Below, piece by piece: positions 561 to 31,996 of a DNA stretch of 32,035 nucleotides; position 1 is the stretch's first letter, and the number at the start of each line of letters is the position of its first letter. Below the pieces are notes generated by a model, which saw nothing but the letters and a program-made list of their open reading frames with translations, was not told the origin of the DNA and ran no database searches. This DNA is from a virus (taxonomy: Duplodnaviria; Heunggongvirae; Uroviricota; Caudoviricetes): the IMG/VR virus record IMGVR_UViG_2690316263_000015, positions 1 through 32,035 of that record; one strand, written 5' to 3'. The translations under genes were made by a program, and so were the position numbers.

Positions 561-1049
561 ATGAGTCTTTTGAATGACGTTCAGAAATTCATTGAAGCCC
601 ATCCGGGCTGTACTTCCGGAGACATTGCAGATGCTTTTGCTGGTTACTCACGGCAGCGCGTTCTGCAGTCAGCAAGCAAGTTACGTCAGAGTGGGCGTGT
701 GGCTCACCGTTGTGAAGGAGATACACGCAGACATTTCCCGCGCCTGACTGAGAGAGCGCAGGAGCCGGAACCACAATCTGTTCGTGAAACCAGACCTGTG
801 CGCAATTTCTATGTCGGCACTAACGATCCCCGGGTGATTTTGTGCCTGACCCGCCAGGCTGAAGAGCTGGAGTCCAGGGGCTTATACCGTCGTGCTGCAA
901 CGGTGTGGATGGCGGCATTCCGTGAAAGTCACTCCCAGCCAGAACGAAACAACTTTCTGGCGCGTCGAGAGCGGTGCTTACGGAAAAGCAGCAAGCGCGC
1001 TGTATCGGGTGATGAATGGTATCTGTCAGGGAATTACGTGGGGGCTTAA
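561..1049 (+). CDS. PerC-like transcriptional activator family protein
   Basis: ATG 561 preceded by GGGGG (551-555); the ORF-track GTG 555 start is less likely. C-terminal segment AEELESRGLYRRAATVWMAAF recalls the PerC-family signature; the N-terminal part looks like a small DNA-binding domain. Confidence 0.45.
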   Translation: MSLLNDVQKFIEAHPGCTSGDIADAFAGYSRQRVLQSASKLRQSGRVAHRCEGDTRRHFPRLTERAQEPEPQSVRETRPVRNFYVGTNDPRVILCLTRQAEELESRGLYRRAATVWMAAFRESHSQPERNNFLARRERCLRKSSKRAVSGDEWYLSGNYVGA

Positions 1050-1375
1050 TGACGACGTTAACTCAGTGTCAGCAGCAGGTGCTGGATATGCTGATTTCTT
1101 ATCAGAAAGAACGTGGCTTCCCGCCAACCAATCAGGAGGTGGCAACCATGCTGGGATACCGTTCAGTGAATGCAGCGGTGGAGCATCTTCGCGCACTGGA
1201 GAAAAAAGGCGTCATCACGATAAAGCGTGGCGTGGCCCGGGGCATCACGCTTCATACCGCGGTGAAGGACGACGACAGCGAGGCGGTCGGGATTATCCGC
1301 TCACTGCTTGCCGGTGAGGAAAACGCAAGGCTGCGTGCAACCCACTGGTTACATGAGAGGGGCCTGAAAGTATGA
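1049..1375 (+). CDS. LexA-type N-terminal DNA-binding domain protein (no peptidase domain)
   Basis: ATG 1049 overlaps the upstream stop (TAATG). LTQCQQQVLDMLISYQKERGFPPTNQEVATMLGYRSVNAAVEHLRALEKKGVI parallels the LexA winged-helix DNA-binding domain; protein ends after about 109 aa without the Ser/Lys autopeptidase domain. Confidence 0.6.
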   Translation: MTTLTQCQQQVLDMLISYQKERGFPPTNQEVATMLGYRSVNAAVEHLRALEKKGVITIKRGVARGITLHTAVKDDDSEAVGIIRSLLAGEENARLRATHWLHERGLKV

Positions 1376-2591: not shown

Positions 2592-3587
2592 GTGACCGTG
2601 AGAGCACTACTGACCCCTGAAATTGCCCCGCGTATGGGGATCGTATTGTTCAGGCCAGGTTCAGAGCTGATGCCCCTGTTTATGCAGGGGCGTGTCCTGC
2701 TGGAGCCTGAGCCGGAACGTTACTCATCTTTCGCCAGTGGTGCCGTTCCGGCGGCATCACAACCGCTGGCGGATGATCCTGCCGTTCGGGCCGTGTTCCG
2801 CAATGAGGCAGTGATCCGTCGTGCTGGTGGCGTGGAATGTCTTGAAAGCTGGTTACTTCGTGAAAAAGGCTGCCAGTGGCCTCATTCCGACTGGCACAGC
2901 GAGAACATGACCACAATGCGACACGCTCCGGGCGCAATCCGTCTGTGCTGGCACTGCGATAACCAGCTGCGCGATCAGTTCACGGAACGGCTGGAATCAA
3001 TGGCAACGGATAACTGTGCCCGCTGGGTGTTGTCTGTTGTGCGTCGGGATCTCGGTTTTGATGACAGTCACGTTGTGACAATGCCGGAACTGTGCTGGTG
3101 GCTGATTCGTAATGATCTGGCGGATGCCTTACCGGAAAGTGCAGCCCGTAAGGCACTGAGATTACCGAAGCCTGTTGTGCCATCTGTCACCCGGGAAAGT
3201 GACCTTGTGCCTTCGGTTCCTGCCACCAGCATCATCCAGGATAAAGCAAAAAAGGTGCTGGCGCTGAAAGTGGATCCGGAGTCGCCGGAGTCTTTTATGT
3301 TACGCCCAAAACGTCGCCGCTGGGTTAATGAAAAGTACACGCGCTGGGTTAAGACACAGCCGTGTGCATGTTGTGGAAAGCCCGCTGATGATCCCCACCA
3401 CCTGATAGGTCACGGTCAGGGTGGAATGGGAACAAAAGCGCATGACCTCTTTGTGTTGCCTTTGTGCAGAAAGCATCACGACGAGCTGCATGCGGATACC
3501 GTGGCATTTGAAGAGAAGTATGGCTCCCAGCTGGAGCTGATATTTCGTTTTATCGATCGTGCGCTGGCAATAGGCGTACTGGCGTAA
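2592..3587 (+). CDS. DUF968 (YdfU-like) protein with C-terminal Cys/His metal-binding motif
   Basis: 331-aa ORF; C-terminus CACCGKPADDPHHLIGHG ... LCRKHHDELH resembles DUF968 proteins found upstream of Q in lambdoid prophages. Start ambiguous (GTG 2592 or GTG 2598 after GAGGTG). Confidence 0.55.
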   Translation: MTVRALLTPEIAPRMGIVLFRPGSELMPLFMQGRVLLEPEPERYSSFASGAVPAASQPLADDPAVRAVFRNEAVIRRAGGVECLESWLLREKGCQWPHSDWHSENMTTMRHAPGAIRLCWHCDNQLRDQFTERLESMATDNCARWVLSVVRRDLGFDDSHVVTMPELCWWLIRNDLADALPESAARKALRLPKPVVPSVTRESDLVPSVPATSIIQDKAKKVLALKVDPESPESFMLRPKRRRWVNEKYTRWVKTQPCACCGKPADDPHHLIGHGQGGMGTKAHDLFVLPLCRKHHDELHADTVAFEEKYGSQLELIFRFIDRALAIGVLA

Positions 3588-3600
3588 GTGGAGAACGAGC

Positions 3601-4353
3601 ATGAACCTTGAAGCCTTACCGAAATATTACTCCCCAAAATCTCCAAAATTGAGCGATGACGCACCGACGACAGGCTCTGGTGGTTTAACAATTACGGATG
3701 TAATGGCTGCGCAGGGGATGGTGCAGTCGAAAGCACCGCTTGGGTTTGCCTTATTCCTGGCAAAAGTTGGTGTTCAGGATCCTCAATTTGCGATTGAAGG
3801 TCTGCTCAATTACGCGATGGCACTGGATAACCCGACATTGAACAAATTGAGTGAAGAAACCCGGTTACAGATCATCCCTTACCTTGTGAATTTTGCCTTT
3901 GCTGATTATTCCAGGTCTGCGGCAAGTAAGGCTCGCTGTGAGCATTGTGCTGGTACTGGATTTCATAATGTATTGCGCGAAGTGGTGAAACACTCCAGAA
4001 GCGGGGAATCTGTTATCAAGGAAGAGTGGGTGAAGGAACTATGTCAGCATTGTCATGGTAAGGGAGAAGTCAGCACAGCGTGCAGAGGGTGTAAGGGTAA
4101 AGGTATTGTCCTGGATGAAAAAAGGACCCGGCTTCATGGCACGCCTGTTTATAAGATTTGTGGGCGTTGCAATGGAAACCGGTTTAGCCGTTTACCAACC
4201 ACACTGGCGCGGCATCATGTCCAGAAGCTGGTACCAGACCTGACAGATTATCAGTGGTACAAAGGATATGCAGATGTCATTGATAAACTGGTTACAAAGT
4301 GCTGGCAGGAAGAAGCATATGCTGAGGCGCAATTAAGAAAAGTGACGAGATAA
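3601..4353 (+). CDS. antitermination protein Q-like late-gene regulator
   Basis: ATG 3601 after GGAGAA. 250 aa with paired Cys motifs (CEHCAGTG ... CQHCHGKG ... CRGCKGKG ... CGRCNG) as in Q-family antiterminators; followed by a promoter plus terminator pair. Confidence 0.7.
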   Translation: MNLEALPKYYSPKSPKLSDDAPTTGSGGLTITDVMAAQGMVQSKAPLGFALFLAKVGVQDPQFAIEGLLNYAMALDNPTLNKLSEETRLQIIPYLVNFAFADYSRSAASKARCEHCAGTGFHNVLREVVKHSRSGESVIKEEWVKELCQHCHGKGEVSTACRGCKGKGIVLDEKRTRLHGTPVYKICGRCNGNRFSRLPTTLARHHVQKLVPDLTDYQWYKGYADVIDKLVTKCWQEEAYAEAQLRKVTR

Positions 4354-4458: not shown

Positions 4459-4486
4459 GAACCCGCCACTGAGCGGGTTTTTTTAT
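4459..4486 (+). terminator. intrinsic terminator (tR'-like)
   Basis: ACCCGC-cactga-GCGGGT stem-loop followed by a T7-8 run (aacccgccactgagcgggttttttta). Confidence 0.6.
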
Positions 4487-4606
4487 GCCTGAAAAACGGT
4501 ACAGGACGTTAAACGCGCTGGTGGTTGCGAATATTGGTCTTTCGGCTTGTATTTTTGTAAATCGATATATACTTATCTTGTGACCAGTAATGTCAGGGCA
4601 ATTGAT

Positions 4607-26059: not shown

Positions 26060-26661
26060 TGTATAACGCCATCTTAAATAATAAATTTATTGCCACAAAG
26101 GCAGGAGAGATTACCGTTTATAACTATGACAGTGAGACACGGGAGTATATTTCTGCATCAATTGAATATCTTGCTGTGGGTGTCGGTATCCCCGCATATT
26201 CCTGTTTAGATGCTCCTGGCACACATAAGGTTGGTTATGCAATCTGCCGTTCGGCAGATTTAAACTCATGGGAATATGTGCCAGACCATCGCGGTGAAGT
26301 TGTCTATAACACCGAAACGGGAGAATCAAAAGAAATCACAGCTCCGTGTGATTACCCTGAAAATACAACCACTATCGTCCCGTTAACGCCATACGATAAA
26401 TGGGATGGTGAGAAATGGGTGACAGATACTGAGGCACAGCATAGTGCCGCAGTAGACGCGGCAGAAGCACAGCGCCAGTCGCTGATTGATGCTGCAATGG
26501 CTTCCATCAGTCTGATTCAACTGAAATTACAGGCCGGGCGGAAGCTGACGCAGGCAGAAACAACCCGACTTAACGCCGTGCTGGATTACATTGACGCGGT
26601 GACGGTAACAGATACCAGCACCGCGCCGGATGTCATCTGGCCTGAACTGCCGGAGGCGTAG
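26056..26661 (+). CDS. tail fibre assembly protein (Tfa)
   Basis: 201 aa, ATGA-coupled to the fibre gene; the C-terminal region ([62 protein letters not shown]) is a typical Tfa chaperone domain. Confidence 0.75.
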
Positions 26662-27076
26662 GCCATTCAATATCGGGGGCTGTTGAAGTATCAACACGCA
26701 TCAGCAGCACACGGTATTTCTTCCATTGGGTGAGAGTTGAAGTTTCTTCATCAGTTGCAATGCCCGCATCAACAGCATCCTGACGCCAGGATATTTCACT
26801 GTCAGCTTTTGCACGAAATGTGGCTTTCATGTTTTCTGCATCTGATATTTTCTGTTCTGGTGAAAGCGGCGGCTCATCAACCCATGCAAGGGCCCCTGAA
26901 ACCATTCCCAGCATTTTTCCTGTTGGCTTATTTCCCCCATTAAATCTGACAGCATCCTCATCGCTGATTTCAATACCATCCTGCGGCCATGTCCCCTCCT
27001 TGATATAACTTTCGTATAGCGCTGCGTTGTAGATTGCATTTTCGGAAGGGCTGTAAACACTTTTAACTTTATTCAT
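26633..27076 (-). CDS. alternative tail fibre assembly protein (Tfa')
   Basis: 147 aa on the minus strand; the C-terminal region (SPEQKISDAENMKATFRAKADSEISWRQDAVDAGIATDEETSTLTQWKKYRVLLMRVD) parallels the Tfa chaperone domain. SD GGGAGA upstream of ATG. Convergent with tfa, 3' ends overlapping 26633-26661. Confidence 0.7.
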   Translation of the reverse strand: MNKVKSVYSPSENAIYNAALYESYIKEGTWPQDGIEISDEDAVRFNGGNKPTGKMLGMVSGALAWVDEPPLSPEQKISDAENMKATFRAKADSEISWRQDAVDAGIATDEETSTLTQWKKYRVLLMRVDTSTAPDIEWPTPPAVQAR

Positions 27077-27080
27077 TCTG

Positions 27081-27458
27081 TTATCTCCCTTTCGCTATAT
27101 AGCAAAGATTAAACCCACCGCTACCTGACATACGGGCTGTAAAACCCGTTCTTGAAGTACCAGTTGAGTTAACTCCATAAGCAGGCATGGTTGTTGGAGA
27201 AAGCAGAGACTCCTGGATATCTGCCATTGTCAGTGTAATTGATTCGACCCGCGCGGGGAAAGGTAGCGGGAAAACAACATTCGTCCCTGTCTGTCCAACG
27301 GGGAAACCGAAAATACCCCATTGTGTAATTACCCCATCCGGCCCCTTACTCCATCCAGATTTAGGATTCGGCCAGTCTGCTGCTCCAGAGTGCCCCGTTG
27401 TAAAACTACTCATATCTGGTACTTGCCCGGTATCCGTTCCGACGTTCCTCGTTGCCGC
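27081..27458 (-). CDS. alternative promoterless tail-fibre C-terminal segment (Sv'-like), expressed only after inversion
   Basis: Minus-strand frame is open from the right crossover site to TAA (27081-27083), 4 nt before tfa'; it shares the crossover-encoded GLGE junction with the fibre gene. The N-terminal 'MMPFARY' part of the ORF-track call lies across the recombination site and is probably not coding. Confidence 0.6.
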   Translation of the reverse strand, partial: AATRNVGTDTGQVPDMSSFTTGHSGAADWPNPKSGWSKGPDGVITQWGIFGFPVGQTGTNVVFPLPFPARVESITLTMADIQESLLSPTTMPAYGVNSTGTSRTGFTARMSGSGGFNLCYIAKGR

Positions 27459-27484
27459 TTCTCCCAAACCAACGTTTATGAAAA
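27459..27484. repeat. right recombination site of invertible segment (hix/gix-like, inverted)
   Basis: Its reverse complement TTTTCATAAACG-TT-GGTTTGGGAGAA matches the left site over the GGTTTGGGAGAA half-site and the central TT. Confidence 0.6.
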
Positions 27485-27538
27485 TGCAGAAATAACGAGC
27501 AAATGGCATCATTCCTGCTTTTGTCAGGGGGATCTACC

Positions 27539-27762: not shown

Positions 27763-29712
27763 TTAATCGTGTTTTGGCCATACTTTCAATGCAATTTCCC
27801 CCAACTTTTTACCCCGCTCCAGGATTTCATCCTCATCCCATTTATCCTTAACTATAAGTGGAATGTTCAGTCGTAGATTGGTGTGGACGATGAGAGCATC
27901 ACGTTTTTTCAGAAATACAGCATTCTGAACAGAACGGTTTACGCTAAGGTTAAGCAAAGTTAGATTTCCCAAAGTAGCTATCGCTTGTTGCCGTTTCCTT
28001 ACCAGTAGCTGTTCAGGGGTAAGATCGGTTCCAGACAGAACAATTTGGTTCAATACCGTAGCATCTGAATTTGTCACCATACGACCATTTTCGAGAGGCC
28101 AACAGGAATACCAACTTTGGGGCATAAGATGATCGATATCGAGATTAGAAAGATTTGGAACATCAGGCTTTTCGGTCTTCACTTGGCGACAAAGTTCTCT
28201 TTCAAGTTCCGTTAACATTGAGCGCATTTTCGGTGCGTCGAGCCTGCCAGGATAAAGTGGAGCATTGATGCAAGCGTTGAGAAATTCTGAGTCACCAGGC
28301 CAACGTGAGGCTTCGCCATTTAAGTTATTGAGGATATTACGTAACTCAACACTGGAAATTTCCGTTTTAGCCAAGTGCCGCAATACATTCATAAATACAT
28401 TGTTGTAATTCTTTGGCGTCAGGCCACATACGGCTCTTCGTACTACGTAGGAGACAAGATCATTATACATGACTGCTTTCTCATCATCAGCGATGTTAGC
28501 TATCGAAATGAACAAAGCAAGCGGATAAAGTGTCGTCACATCATAGTCTGCGATGCGATATCCAAAGTGTGAGATGGGGGTTGTGCCAAAACCATCAACC
28601 AATTCTTTATATTGTAATGCATATTGTTTGAGGCGCTTTACTTGCAGATCTGCTCGTTGTGAAGACAAGTCCTTACTTACATAATCACGATACTCATTGT
28701 AAAGACGAGACAGATCAATTTCACGCTGCCTTTCTGATTGCAATGTCGCATGTACTAGCCACTCCATGCGTGGTTTATTAATACGTCCACGGCGTTGTTT
28801 TTCCGACCAGTATTTATCTTCAAAGCTCTTCCACTCATTTTCATATAATTCAATAGCATTAATATTTTCATGCTCTGCGCACATAAAGATATAGTTGCGA
28901 ATAAGATCCGTAGCATGAAGTTCCGCCCCTCGCCCATTTAATGTTTCAAAAATTATTTGGGCATCATCTTCAGCTTCGAGAAATATGCTTACCAGTTTCA
29001 GATCTGTTAAGACAGCCTCAATTAGAGCTACAGCATTTTCTTGTGGTGAGTGGTTTTCTATTTTAATCCATTTTATAAAGGCTTTAGTAAAAAAACATAA
29101 TGCTTCTAGTGATGGCGGGTGATTAAAACGCTTACGCAACGTACCATGCTGCGTGAAACTATCAGAGAATACGTCCCGGAGATCGTCAATCTTTTCAACA
29201 TTAAAACTTTGAATAAAATGAGTTTGATCCCGAAAAGTTGGCCACAGTTTGAAGCGTTCTACTTCTTTATTTCGCATTGTGTCTTCGTTTGAGTTTTTCA
29301 GGCAAGGCGAAATGAGAGCCTCTAAGCTGGAAAGATCCGTAGCACGTAATGCTAATCGGATGGATGCCAGAACATATTGAAGAGTGGTCAATCGTTGCTG
29401 ACCATCAATAATATGTATGGAATCTACACCTAATAATCCTTTTTTTGATTGAGGTTCCAGTACAACCGCACCAAGGAAATGGGGAGTTGGTTTTGTACCC
29501 GAGAGCCGGGATTGTGCTTTCTCTAGGATATCCTCCAGTAGAGCTGACCATTGGTCTTGCTGAGTCCATACATAGGCACGTTGATAGAATGGAACACAGT
29601 ATTGTCGGCGGTCTTGAAAAAGTTGTTGGACAGTTAGCGTCTCGGATTTCATGGTATACCTGTAAGCGACATTGTACAAAAGTGAGGAGTTAATCTGATT
29701 TAGAACAATCAT
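27763..29712 (-). CDS. DUF262-DUF1524 nuclease, GmrSD-like (type IV modification-dependent restriction candidate)
   Basis: 649-aa minus-strand ORF. N-terminal DUF262 motifs (FYQRAYVWTQ, IIDGQQRLTTL, FETLNGRGAELHATDLIRNY) and C-terminal DUF1524 His-Me finger (DIDHLMPQSW, GNLTLLNLSVNRSVQN). Likely true start at internal ATG 29652 (MKSETL). Gene is AT-rich. Confidence 0.8.
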   Translation of the reverse strand: MIVLNQINSSLLYNVAYRYTMKSETLTVQQLFQDRRQYCVPFYQRAYVWTQQDQWSALLEDILEKAQSRLSGTKPTPHFLGAVVLEPQSKKGLLGVDSIHIIDGQQRLTTLQYVLASIRLALRATDLSSLEALISPCLKNSNEDTMRNKEVERFKLWPTFRDQTHFIQSFNVEKIDDLRDVFSDSFTQHGTLRKRFNHPPSLEALCFFTKAFIKWIKIENHSPQENAVALIEAVLTDLKLVSIFLEAEDDAQIIFETLNGRGAELHATDLIRNYIFMCAEHENINAIELYENEWKSFEDKYWSEKQRRGRINKPRMEWLVHATLQSERQREIDLSRLYNEYRDYVSKDLSSQRADLQVKRLKQYALQYKELVDGFGTTPISHFGYRIADYDVTTLYPLALFISIANIADDEKAVMYNDLVSYVVRRAVCGLTPKNYNNVFMNVLRHLAKTEISSVELRNILNNLNGEASRWPGDSEFLNACINAPLYPGRLDAPKMRSMLTELERELCRQVKTEKPDVPNLSNLDIDHLMPQSWYSCWPLENGRMVTNSDATVLNQIVLSGTDLTPEQLLVRKRQQAIATLGNLTLLNLSVNRSVQNAVFLKKRDALIVHTNLRLNIPLIVKDKWDEDEILERGKKLGEIALKVWPKHD

Positions 29713-30495
29713 TTTATTCTGCTATGATACAACGTATTTGTTACCGGTTAAGTAAAAAACGCGTCTGAACGCTGACGTTTTAGGGCTTTACTGGTTATTC
29801 TTTCTTATCTCTTCATCATCCCATCGGCATCCTGTCGAGGTTGTTGACTTGTTGTTATTTATTTTGTCTAGGCGCTGTTTAATTATTATTGATAGAACTG
29901 ATGGTGAGAGGTGATTGAAATTGTAGGCACGTCGTTTGCAAGGACGTGCTACGACTGGCTGGTGAACTTCCGATAGTGCGAGTATTGAATGATTTCCTAC
30001 GTGCTAACTAGTGAACAAACAACTCTTCAGTAGACTCTCAGGTATCATTCAGAGTTTCCTGAACGAAAGTTTTAGCTCAATCTTTATCTGCAGTATGTCT
30101 AACTGAAAAACTATCGTTGCTGGTGGCTTTTACGATCATCTCCACATCGTCATAACGCTTGCCAATGTGTTGGGTTAACTCTTCCTTTAACGCGTCCACA
30201 GCGCCATTTGGCATTTGGTCATTTTGTCTTTGGTTATGGAGATCTCAATACGCATAACACTTCTTTTGTACTGCGTTTGTAGACAGTATTATTCTTATCT
30301 GTGTAAATAAACAGTATCAAGACTTCGTTTTAGCTGCATAAGAAAAAAGAGATGGATACATTCGGAAAGATTTTGATGGTGGTAGGCTAAGTGAATAGCC
30401 TAAAGGTGTTTTACCCCAATTATTCCCCGGTATTTCTCCGCATAAAAAACAATCATAAAAAACCAGCCATAATAGGCTGGTTCTTAAGGGATTTT

Positions 30496-30544
30496 TGGTC
30501 GCACGAGAGGATTTGAACCTCCGACCCCCGACACCCCATGATGG
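30496..30544 (-). other. orphan 3' fragment of a tRNA-Pro gene (about 49 nt, T-arm and acceptor 3' strand with CCA); not a complete tRNA
   Basis: Minus-strand reading CATCATGGGGTGTCGGGGGTCGGAGGTTCAAATCCTCTCGTGCGACCA matches, from recall, the 3' part of enterobacterial tRNA-Pro (proM-like). No matching 5' acceptor strand or D-arm upstream. Confidence 0.6.
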
Positions 30545-31465
30545 TTATGATAGACCGTAGTATTTTTTCAGAGCCGCTGTAGCTGCTTGAGTTGCAGCAG
30601 CTATTCCTATGCCCAAAGTACCATGGGCTGCTTTACTCGCAATATTTGCCAACCATTTACTAACAGATTGACCATATTCACCACGTTTGTTAGCTATCGG
30701 GCCATCTTCACCAATAGCAATTTCTAAATCGTTAACATCAGATTTAGGGAACCCCTGAGCTGAGAGAAACTCTTTTAATGACTCAGTGTCGTTTTTTACG
30801 ACGTGGTTATTCACAGAAAATGAGTTTTCATTTCCGAAGTTTATGACAGTATTGTCTCCAAAAATTGAGTTATGGAATAATGAAGACGTGTCGATATTTT
30901 TAAGTTTTTCTGTCATGTTTTTCTCATCTGGTATTTCAGAAACTTGATCAGAAAGTTCAAGTATAAAATCAAGTAGCCGTGACCTGACCTGAGTTAAGAT
31001 GGAAGTAAAGTTATGTAGTGCGATCTCTTTATAACAGCGTGTTAACTCATAGCCTTTATCGATACCTTTGCAGTACTTAACTAACGCGTAATCTAAAGGA
31101 ATTGGCTGCTGAAGAGCATGGCTATCACCAGCATTGGTTACTAGTTCTTCGATTTGACTGATTGAAAGCCTCACATTACTGGTTGTAGCATCTTCATAGT
31201 CATCTTCACTTAGATAGCCAATCGGTAACGGAAAAGCTCTATATAGGCGAACGCCGTTGTTCAGATCTGCAAGAATTCTTGTGCCAACAATTCTATAATC
31301 TGGAAGGGAAACTGAATCAGGATAACCGTTTATCTCATGATTTACCCATGCAGCAAGCTCCTTTTTCCCGATAGAGAAAAGAAGGATCTTCGTTTTTATG
31401 AGAGCATTTGTTGTGCCTTCATCACCAGTACTTAGTATCTGAATGATTTCTTGCAGTTGGTTCAT
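30545..31465 (-). CDS. abortive-infection-like protein (AbiTii-type N-terminal domain suspected)
   Basis: 306-aa minus-strand ORF. N-terminus (LQEIIQILSTGDEGTTNALIKTKILLFSIGKKELAAWVNHEINGY) resembles AbiTii-domain proteins as I recall them; C-terminus has an Ala/Gly-rich amphipathic tail. AT-rich. Family call unverified. Confidence 0.45.
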   Translation of the reverse strand: MNQLQEIIQILSTGDEGTTNALIKTKILLFSIGKKELAAWVNHEINGYPDSVSLPDYRIVGTRILADLNNGVRLYRAFPLPIGYLSEDDYEDATTSNVRLSISQIEELVTNAGDSHALQQPIPLDYALVKYCKGIDKGYELTRCYKEIALHNFTSILTQVRSRLLDFILELSDQVSEIPDEKNMTEKLKNIDTSSLFHNSIFGDNTVINFGNENSFSVNNHVVKNDTESLKEFLSAQGFPKSDVNDLEIAIGEDGPIANKRGEYGQSVSKWLANIASKAAHGTLGIGIAAATQAATAALKKYYGLS

Positions 31466-31633: not shown

Positions 31634-31996
31634 TGGTGGAGCTGGCGGGAGTTGAACCCGCGTCCGAAATTCCTACATCCTCGGTACTACATGCTTAGTC
31701 AGTCTTTACATTCGCTTGCCAGCTGCGGACGGACACGCCACTAACAAACTAGCCTGATTAAGTTTTAACGCTTCAACCCCAGGCAGGGCTTCCACGCGAT
31801 CTCTTTTGGGTTTGACCTCTCTTGATCCCCGTCCTAAGAGCGGAGGCTAGGGAGAGAGGGCTCTAAGCAGGTTATTAAGCTGCTAAAGCGTAGTTTTCGT
31901 CGTTTGCGACTATTTTTTGCGGCTTTTTACGAGGCCAACCGCCCCTCGGCATGCACCTTGGGTTTCGCAAATCCCGTCGAATCCAGAATCAGCCCC
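31634..31996 (-). ncRNA. ssrA: tmRNA (transfer-messenger RNA, SsrA)
   Basis: Reverse complement reads GGGGCTGATTCTGGATTCGACGGG ... GGACGCGGGTTCAACTCCCGCCAGCTCCACCA, 363 nt, with the tag reading frame GCAAACGACGAAAACTACGCTTTAGCAGCTTAA (ANDENYALAA) at 31875-31907. Confidence 0.95.

Follow-up and report, generated by a model that had tools for sequence, protein, structure and literature searches.

The window, i.e. the whole stretch of 32,035 nucleotides analysed here (positions 1 to 32,035 of the IMG/VR virus record IMGVR_UViG_2690316263_000015), carries a lambdoid, SfV/e14-like prophage, in which the C-terminal part of an O-like replication protein is followed by a PerC-like gene, a short LexA-like gene, rusA, a KilA-N gene, a DUF968 gene, Q, and the lysis and morphogenesis genes. 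The LexA-like gene, hereafter LexD, is found on the plus strand at 1049-1375 and codes for a 108-aa protein with a LexA-type winged helix but without the S24 peptidase domain. Its ORF opens with an ATG at 1049 and ends with a TGA at 1373-1375. An alternative in-frame ATG at 1016 would give a 119-aa product; position 1049 was retained as the start because the homologues begin with MTTLT, as does a 100%-identical copy in its RefSeq annotation. A G-rich ribosome-binding stretch lies immediately 5' of this ATG, which overlaps the TAA stop of the PerC-family gene (TAATG), and the LexD TGA in turn overlaps the ATG of rusA (ATGA), rusA thus beginning inside the LexD stop codon. DNA 100% identical to LexD is present in E. 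coli F9792, where its product is annotated as WP_000210170.1, "LexA family transcriptional regulator".

The upstream neighbour of LexD, a PerC-family (yfdN-like) gene (555-1049, +), codes for a protein with an extra N-terminal half of ~95 aa showing weak MarR/wHTH similarity (phrog_1687); PerC/Pch homologues activate the LEE in EPEC and EHEC. The downstream neighbour is rusA, for a Holliday junction resolvase (1372-1761, +). Further along, the DUF968 gene (2592-3587, +) combines an Orf-like N-terminal part with a His-Me/HNH nuclease, the fusion by which DUF968 proteins have been described (PMC4118853, PMC5714182), and a Q-type antiterminator gene (3601-4353, +) closes the nin region. From the replication genes to Q, the genes of the window are tightly packed with no intergenic space, and no promoter-like site was found on the plus strand between positions 1 and 5600. 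In the E. coli F9792 prophage that carries the 100%-identical LexD, a separate and divergent pair consisting of a cI-like S24 repressor and a Cro-like protein (ymfK/ymfT) is located ~3 kb upstream, and the layout of phage mEp390 matches in having a separate repressor pair. Taken together, the position of the gene, the separate repressor and the lack of a plus-strand promoter indicate that LexD is a delayed-early gene of the nin region and not the immunity repressor.

Concerning the rest of the window, an AraC-family regulator gene (PF12833, PF00165; 4547-5350, +) is inserted as a moron between the Q/late-promoter region, with a terminator at about 4463-4490, and the lysis genes; prophage AraC-like regulators in EHEC modulate acid resistance and type III secretion. 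At 26633-27512 (-), a tail-fibre assembly gene (Caudo_TAP) and a gp53-like tail-fibre C-terminus run antisense to the other late genes and look like an alternative or invertible cassette. Two defence genes are found at the prophage/island end (27763-29712 and 30545-31465, both on the minus strand), the pair comprising a GmrSD-type type IV methyl-directed restriction enzyme (PADLOC mREase_IV, 1405 bits) and an AbiTii abortive-infection protein. LexD itself was discarded as an anti-phage defence component, its PADLOC result being a marginal, HTH-level match (E=3.6e-4) to the HTH portion of a CARF protein. The tmRNA gene, ssrA, occupies 31634-31996 (-), and a sequence resembling a tRNA/tmRNA 3' end, at about 30490-30545 and ~1.1 kb from ssrA, is a probable att duplication, because of which the element or elements in the window would have integrated at ssrA. 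In contrast, the 100%-identical nin region of E. coli F9792 belongs to a prophage located beside tRNA-Thr and proA.

The LexA_DNA_bind domain (PF01726) spans residues 1-65 of LexD (positions 1049-1243, +) and positions 1-65 of the 65 in the model, with an E-value of 2.9e-19 and a score of 69 bits vs. a gathering cut-off of 23.7, the threshold being passed over the whole domain model. Similarly, residues 1-108 align with positions 1-106 of the 106 in the profile of PHROG 362, "transcriptional repressor" (E=1.1e-59), and LexD is therefore a member of both families. Among PDB sequences, its best phmmer match is E. coli LexA (E about 1e-15). An AF2 model (pLDDT 83), built from an 18-sequence family alignment, displays a winged helix with helices at residues 6-22, 28-35 and 40-52 and strands at 56-58 and 66-68, and Foldseek places it on the E. 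coli LexA-operator complex 3jso with an rmsd of 1.0-1.1 Å over 67-68 residues at 50-51% identity. The fold is thus that of the N-terminal domain (residues 1-84) of E. coli LexA, with an rmsd of 1.0 Å.

The likeness ends there. The NCBIfam lexA equivalog TIGR00498 gives 70.8 bits on LexD, below its cut-off of 110.95, and only positions 1-91 of the 203 in the model are covered; no Pfam match to Peptidase_S24 was found in LexD, which ends at residue 108. Since the TIGR00498 match stops at 91/203 and rusA starts within the LexD stop codon, LexD lacks the peptidase half and with it Ser119 and Lys156. LexD was consequently rejected as a LexA orthologue, as it scores below the equivalog cut-off and lacks the S24 peptidase/dimerisation domain carrying these two residues. 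The first-pass annotation, which had recognised at 1049-1375 a DNA-binding domain of LexA that lacks the autopeptidase, is confirmed, far beyond chance, by PF01726, by the 3jso overlay and by the partial match to TIGR00498, and it was also right in taking the gene as phage-borne, the nin region being lambdoid. Without the autopeptidase domain, RecA-stimulated self-cleavage of LexD is impossible, as had likewise been proposed, and the protein is almost certainly insensitive to RecA. Heterodimerisation with LexA, also put forward, fares less well: the usual interface is excluded, as LexD lacks the C-terminal dimerisation domain of LexA.

The view that LexD ends before the protease region needs to be amended, since there is indeed no peptidase, but the winged helix is followed by ~40 residues that are modelled as a hairpin of two helices (75-88 and 93-103). 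This family-specific hairpin (residues 75-103; positions 1271-1357, +; consensus EAVxIIRALLAGEENARxRAxxWLHERG) is preceded by a low-confidence linker at residues 69-74 and has itself a block pLDDT of 85-87. A97 and L101 do not vary in the 18-sequence alignment and hardly vary among 108 unique family sequences, in which positions 80, 82, 83, 86, 87 and 100 also keep hydrophobic residues. In 75 related phage genes, dN/dS amounts to 0.20 for the tail as well as for the DNA-binding part, from which both parts can be considered functional. LexD is therefore more than a cut-off LexA, and possesses a conserved and selected hairpin tail of its own.

No counterpart of this tail was found by Foldseek among PDB structures, and a profile search with the tail only, in a database of 5.8 billion proteins, returned fragments of the same family and no other architecture. 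Dimeric repressors are usually built as a winged helix with a short helical module behind it, and from this architecture we infer that the hairpin is probably a dimerisation (or partner-binding) module. The BlaI/MecI-type repressors follow the same plan, with a winged helix and a C-terminal helical dimerisation domain, and the LexD model has a weak Foldseek match (E=0.019, rmsd 7.8 Å) to Rv1846c (PDB 2g9w), which we take to be a BlaI-type repressor; this is an analogy only, as their tails are not homologous to that of LexD. HMMER pairs the LLAGE of the tail (residues 86-90) with VAAGE, the cleavage site of LexA. The idea that LLAGE is a vestigial cleavage site was nevertheless set aside as unsupported: positions 88/89 are mostly S-G among the 108 unique sequences, A-G being unconserved, and the AF2 model puts the motif at a helix end and turn. 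The resemblance is thus regarded as probably fortuitous.

Other combinations of the same domain were met. In the IMG/VR loci L014-L021, the LexD homologues are 157-158 aa long, with SPNAAASH in helix 3 and a different C-terminal domain of ~90 aa in place of the hairpin; the LexA head has therefore been joined to different tails in nin regions. Eight further proteins of ~140-350 aa (P0132, P0133, P0149, P0152, P0153, P0156, P0159 and P0163) have two LexA_DNA_bind stretches in tandem, so that each of them could be a pseudo-dimer made of a single chain.

By alignment with LexA, the recognition helix of LexD corresponds to residues 39-52 (SVNAAVEHLRALEK; positions 1163-1204, +). In LexA, the residues of helix 3 in contact with the operator are S39, N41, A42, E44 and E45 (PMC3091678). 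Helix 3 reads SVNAAVEHLRAL in LexD vs. SPNAAEEHLKAL in LexA, so that four of the five contacts (S39, N41, A42 and E45) are identical and the fifth, E44, is replaced by V. Q8, K53 and R64 are also conserved between the two proteins, as is the RGI motif of the wing, invariant in the family alignments and present in 107 of the 108 unique sequences. Within the family, however, neither of the last two contact positions is fixed: position 44 is A in 76, V in 29 and E in one of the 108 unique sequences, whereas position 45 is E in 66, A in 21, L in 13, S in 5, D in 2 and T in 1, and this variation is found even inside closely related clades and subgroups. The genuine LexA fragments recovered by the same searches all have AAEEH, which argues against a LexD family uniformly tied to the invariant SOS box of the host.

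LexD quite probably binds DNA in a sequence-specific manner. Kim and Little are said to have found in 1992 that the isolated N-terminal domain of LexA dimerises on operator DNA, and the authors of the 3jso structure reportedly attribute the spacing of the half-sites to contacts between the DNA-binding domains. Physiologically relevant binding of SOS boxes by the LexD of the window is more doubtful, and somewhat less likely than not. The suggestion of the first-pass annotation that SOS boxes could be occupied is made plausible, for the protein of the window, by the four helix-3 contacts that align with host LexA, and weakened by the variability of positions 44/45 across the 108 family sequences.

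Operators were searched in the window and in the 12 kb located upstream in the identical E. coli prophage, using the exact pattern CTGT-N8-ACAG, the 20-bp consensus with three mismatches, CTGT-Nx-ACAG with x=0-14, and a PWM for which ~20 SOS boxes of E. coli served as input. Two adjacent SOS-box-like sites were detected by the PWM at 30269-30316, namely TACTGCGTTTGTAGACAGTA (30269-30288; 14.1 bits) and ATCTGTGTAAATAAACAGTA (30297-30316; 19.5 bits, CTGTGTAAATAAACAG). They are the sole candidate LexA-type operators of the window, nothing else having come up in these searches, and precede a dinI-like remnant close to ssrA; they count as a candidate target of LexD only. The remnant itself, on the minus strand, comprises a 45-aa ORF (30077-30214) with its N-terminal stretch apparently in another frame. 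In the early region of the prophage, no SOS box was found by either the pattern or the PWM scans. The single exact CTGT-N8-ACAG of the window (vs. 0.42 expected) is not above chance by count.

Scans for conserved palindromes (6-nt arms, 0-14-nt spacers) around LexD in five helix-3 subgroups gave no candidate operator, and neither did scans for short inverted repeats in the Q-lysis and immunity intergenic regions. The repeats that were retrieved by the palindrome scans are coding-sequence repeats shared by descent, terminators and known SOS boxes only.

The LexD operon of other subgroups is headed by near-perfect SOS boxes, for instance TACTGTTTATTTATACAGTA, which follow a terminator and overlap promoter elements. 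In total, an SOS box scoring 16 bits or more lies in the 2.6 kb upstream of LexD in 28 loci; none was found over the same distance and at the same threshold in ~80 mEp390-like loci or in any of the E. coli-type loci. The arrangement is SOS box-dinI-hyp85-LexD-orf67-DUF968-Q in L111, SOS box-hyp85-LexD, without dinI, in L103, and SOS box-Rha-LexD-DUF968-Q in the Edwardsiella phage EPP-1 (L004). Such SOS-headed nin operons occupy positions 9293-12251 of L111, 9370-9900 of L103 and 3180-5806 of L004, and are also present in L003 and L104-L129; in the Klebsiella-type and Edwardsiella phages, a terminator and an SOS-box-overlapped promoter precede dinI or Rha, then hyp85, LexD, orf67 and DUF968, up to Q. 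This organisation suggests that LexA may directly control Q and the late genes, bypassing the cI switch.

As an SOS box heads the operon, LexD is predicted to be SOS-induced in the box-bearing phages, an arrangement that ties the family to the SOS circuitry and resembles that of the autoregulated host lexA gene. The boxes are nonetheless best read as sites for the host LexA and not for LexD, since all 16 loci encoding an E45L variant (16/16) still have canonical upstream SOS boxes.

Among 5426 complete E. coli genomes, 2233 (about 40%) carry LexD DNA, with up to four copies per genome, and at least 1000 contigs encode exactly this protein. LexD is also known from phages SfV, SfII, SfIV, mEp460 and cdtI, from Stx2c-converting phages and from others, under deposited names that include "LexA DNA binding domain protein" and "LexA repressor". 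More distant members (38-50% identity) are found in mEp390 and in phages of Klebsiella, Edwardsiella and Proteus. The length is constant at 106-108 aa and the tail motif is kept across the range of 38-100% identity. Phages in general, including Tectiviridae, commonly encode stand-alone LexA-type domains of 65-150 aa. The LexD family is thus abundant, already annotated, and ordinary in kind and distribution. No functional study of it was found in the searchable literature; a comparative paper on Stx phages merely lists "pham 237, LexA family, pfam01726".

Synteny was analysed by tblastn with the nin proteins of the window against 136 fetched loci. In every phage locus having enough downstream DNA, with the exception of L134, LexD has DUF968 behind it in the same orientation, and this pairing spans 38-100% identity to the LexD of the window. 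RusA, KilA-N and PerC are variably present around LexD, RusA being adjacent in most loci. The reverse does not hold, as 187 phage records have DUF968 vs. 61 for LexD, and the Stx2a-converting phages, although they have 94-99% identical DUF968 genes, are not among the organisms tallied for LexD-positive records. The pairing being one-way, LexD fits better as an accessory gene of one type of nin region than as an obligate partner of DUF968.

From these data, LexD is tentatively read as a RecA-insensitive, sequence-specific DNA-binding regulator of the lambdoid prophage, most likely acting on LexA-type boxes, a reading that we hold with somewhat less than even confidence. Its TAATG and ATGA overlaps show an operon position in the rightward string of nin-region genes, and the protein would accordingly be made as a delayed-early product during lytic growth or induction, and not in the lysogen. 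It would pair via its hairpin, and perhaps also via contacts between DNA-binding domains, as the N-terminal domains of LexA touch each other on DNA. The paired protein is expected to bind palindromes of CTGT-like half-sites, the likeliest targets being, given that S39, N41, A42 and E45 are kept, LexA-type boxes, i.e. the SOS operators of the host and the dinI-type boxes of prophages. LexD could then work as a repressor that RecA* cannot remove, damping or re-closing SOS-controlled promoters once the phage programme runs. A precedent exists in gp6 of GIL01, a truncated LexA homologue whose palindromic site lies in a promoter under the additional control of LexA (PMC6182141). The same precedent would, by analogy, speak against SOS boxes as the targets, because the gp6 site differs from the LexA box and gp6 activates instead of repressing.

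A stronger version, which we hold to be unlikely, is that LexD binds SOS boxes while immune to RecA* and re-silences the SOS regulon of the host when the prophage enters the lytic cycle. In the relatives having LexD behind an SOS box, re-silencing would start as soon as LexA is cleaved, and the silenced set would include LexA-controlled functions of competitors, such as colicins, antirepressor-controlled prophages and dinI-type genes. If true, this would amount to a phage-imposed, damage-independent off-switch of the SOS response and, on the SOS-headed phage operons, to a negative-feedback pulse generator.

Among the other explanations, the one that survives best, although rather unlikely, is that LexD is a phage factor of the gp6 type, recognising a palindrome of its own in phage DNA and switching a phage promoter on or off so as to time the lytic programme. 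GIL01 gp6, from a Bacillus thuringiensis tectivirus, is a characterised LexA domain without peptidase (Fornelos et al. 2018; PMC6182141) and is the nearest characterised analogue of LexD. It has evolved a distinct site, GaCACAnnTGTGaC, which overlaps the -35 of the late promoter P3, and activates P3, which LexA-gp7 represses (PMC6182141); truncated phage LexA proteins are therefore not new in kind. [quoted passage not shown] The diversity of residues at positions 44 (A/V) and 45 (E/A/L/S/D/T) within close subgroups, as if specificities were diversifying, and the wide occurrence of stand-alone LexA-type domains in phages are in keeping with this explanation.

On the other hand, no subgroup scanned has a conserved non-coding operator palindrome around LexD, the phage of the window leaves no intergenic space from replication to Q to accommodate one, and its LexD retains the four LexA contacts. 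The two proteins also differ in several respects: gp6 has no conserved hairpin tail as far as the paper (PMC6182141) describes, while LexD has one; gp6 recognises a non-LexA palindrome and activates a late promoter, whereas helix 3 of LexD is more LexA-like; and the host of gp6 is Gram-positive and its phage has no lambdoid nin region, the setting in which LexD is located.

That LexD serves as a DNA-binding accessory of the nin recombination module (RusA, DUF968), with no transcriptional role, is quite improbable. Its position upstream of DUF968 on the same strand in all but one eligible phage locus, and next to RusA in most loci, would suit such a function, and the ninR region of lambda likewise has a small dsDNA-binding protein, NinH, beside the Rap nuclease (PMC4118853). 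NinH and LexD indeed share the same niche, as small DNA-binding proteins among recombination genes between the replication genes and Q, but the likeness seen is one of genomic position, and the function of NinH is itself poorly defined. The records with DUF968 but no LexD, Stx2a phages among them, do not suit a dedicated partner, the one-way pairing may simply reflect the block inheritance of one nin-region type, and a recognition helix of the LexA type implies that a DNA sequence is bound rather than a DNA structure.

The two remaining explanations are scarcely credible. A decaying, functionless remnant of a captured lexA could account for the match to just the first 91 of the 203 positions of the lexA model and for the weak AGE likeness to the cleavage site, but is effectively refuted by the dN/dS of about 0.2 in both parts, the constant length, the tail motif kept down to 38% identity, the exact sequence on at least 1000 contigs and the translational coupling of the gene within its operon. 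Finally, a role as lysogeny repressor, which the label of PHROG 362 and the "LexA repressor" of some records might evoke, was rejected, LexD being a member of the rightward operon, where it stands after the replication genes and before Q, and the identical E. coli locus, like mEp390, having its separate repressor pair.

As for the preferred reading of LexD as a RecA-insensitive regulator acting on LexA-type boxes, its implications depend on the operator. [quoted passage not shown] If LexD has an operator of its own, it would be one more timing regulator of the nin region, mainly of interest to phage specialists. Either way, with copies in about 40% of E. coli genomes as well as in toxin-converting phages, LexD lends itself to binding and reporter assays, which would be both easy and informative.
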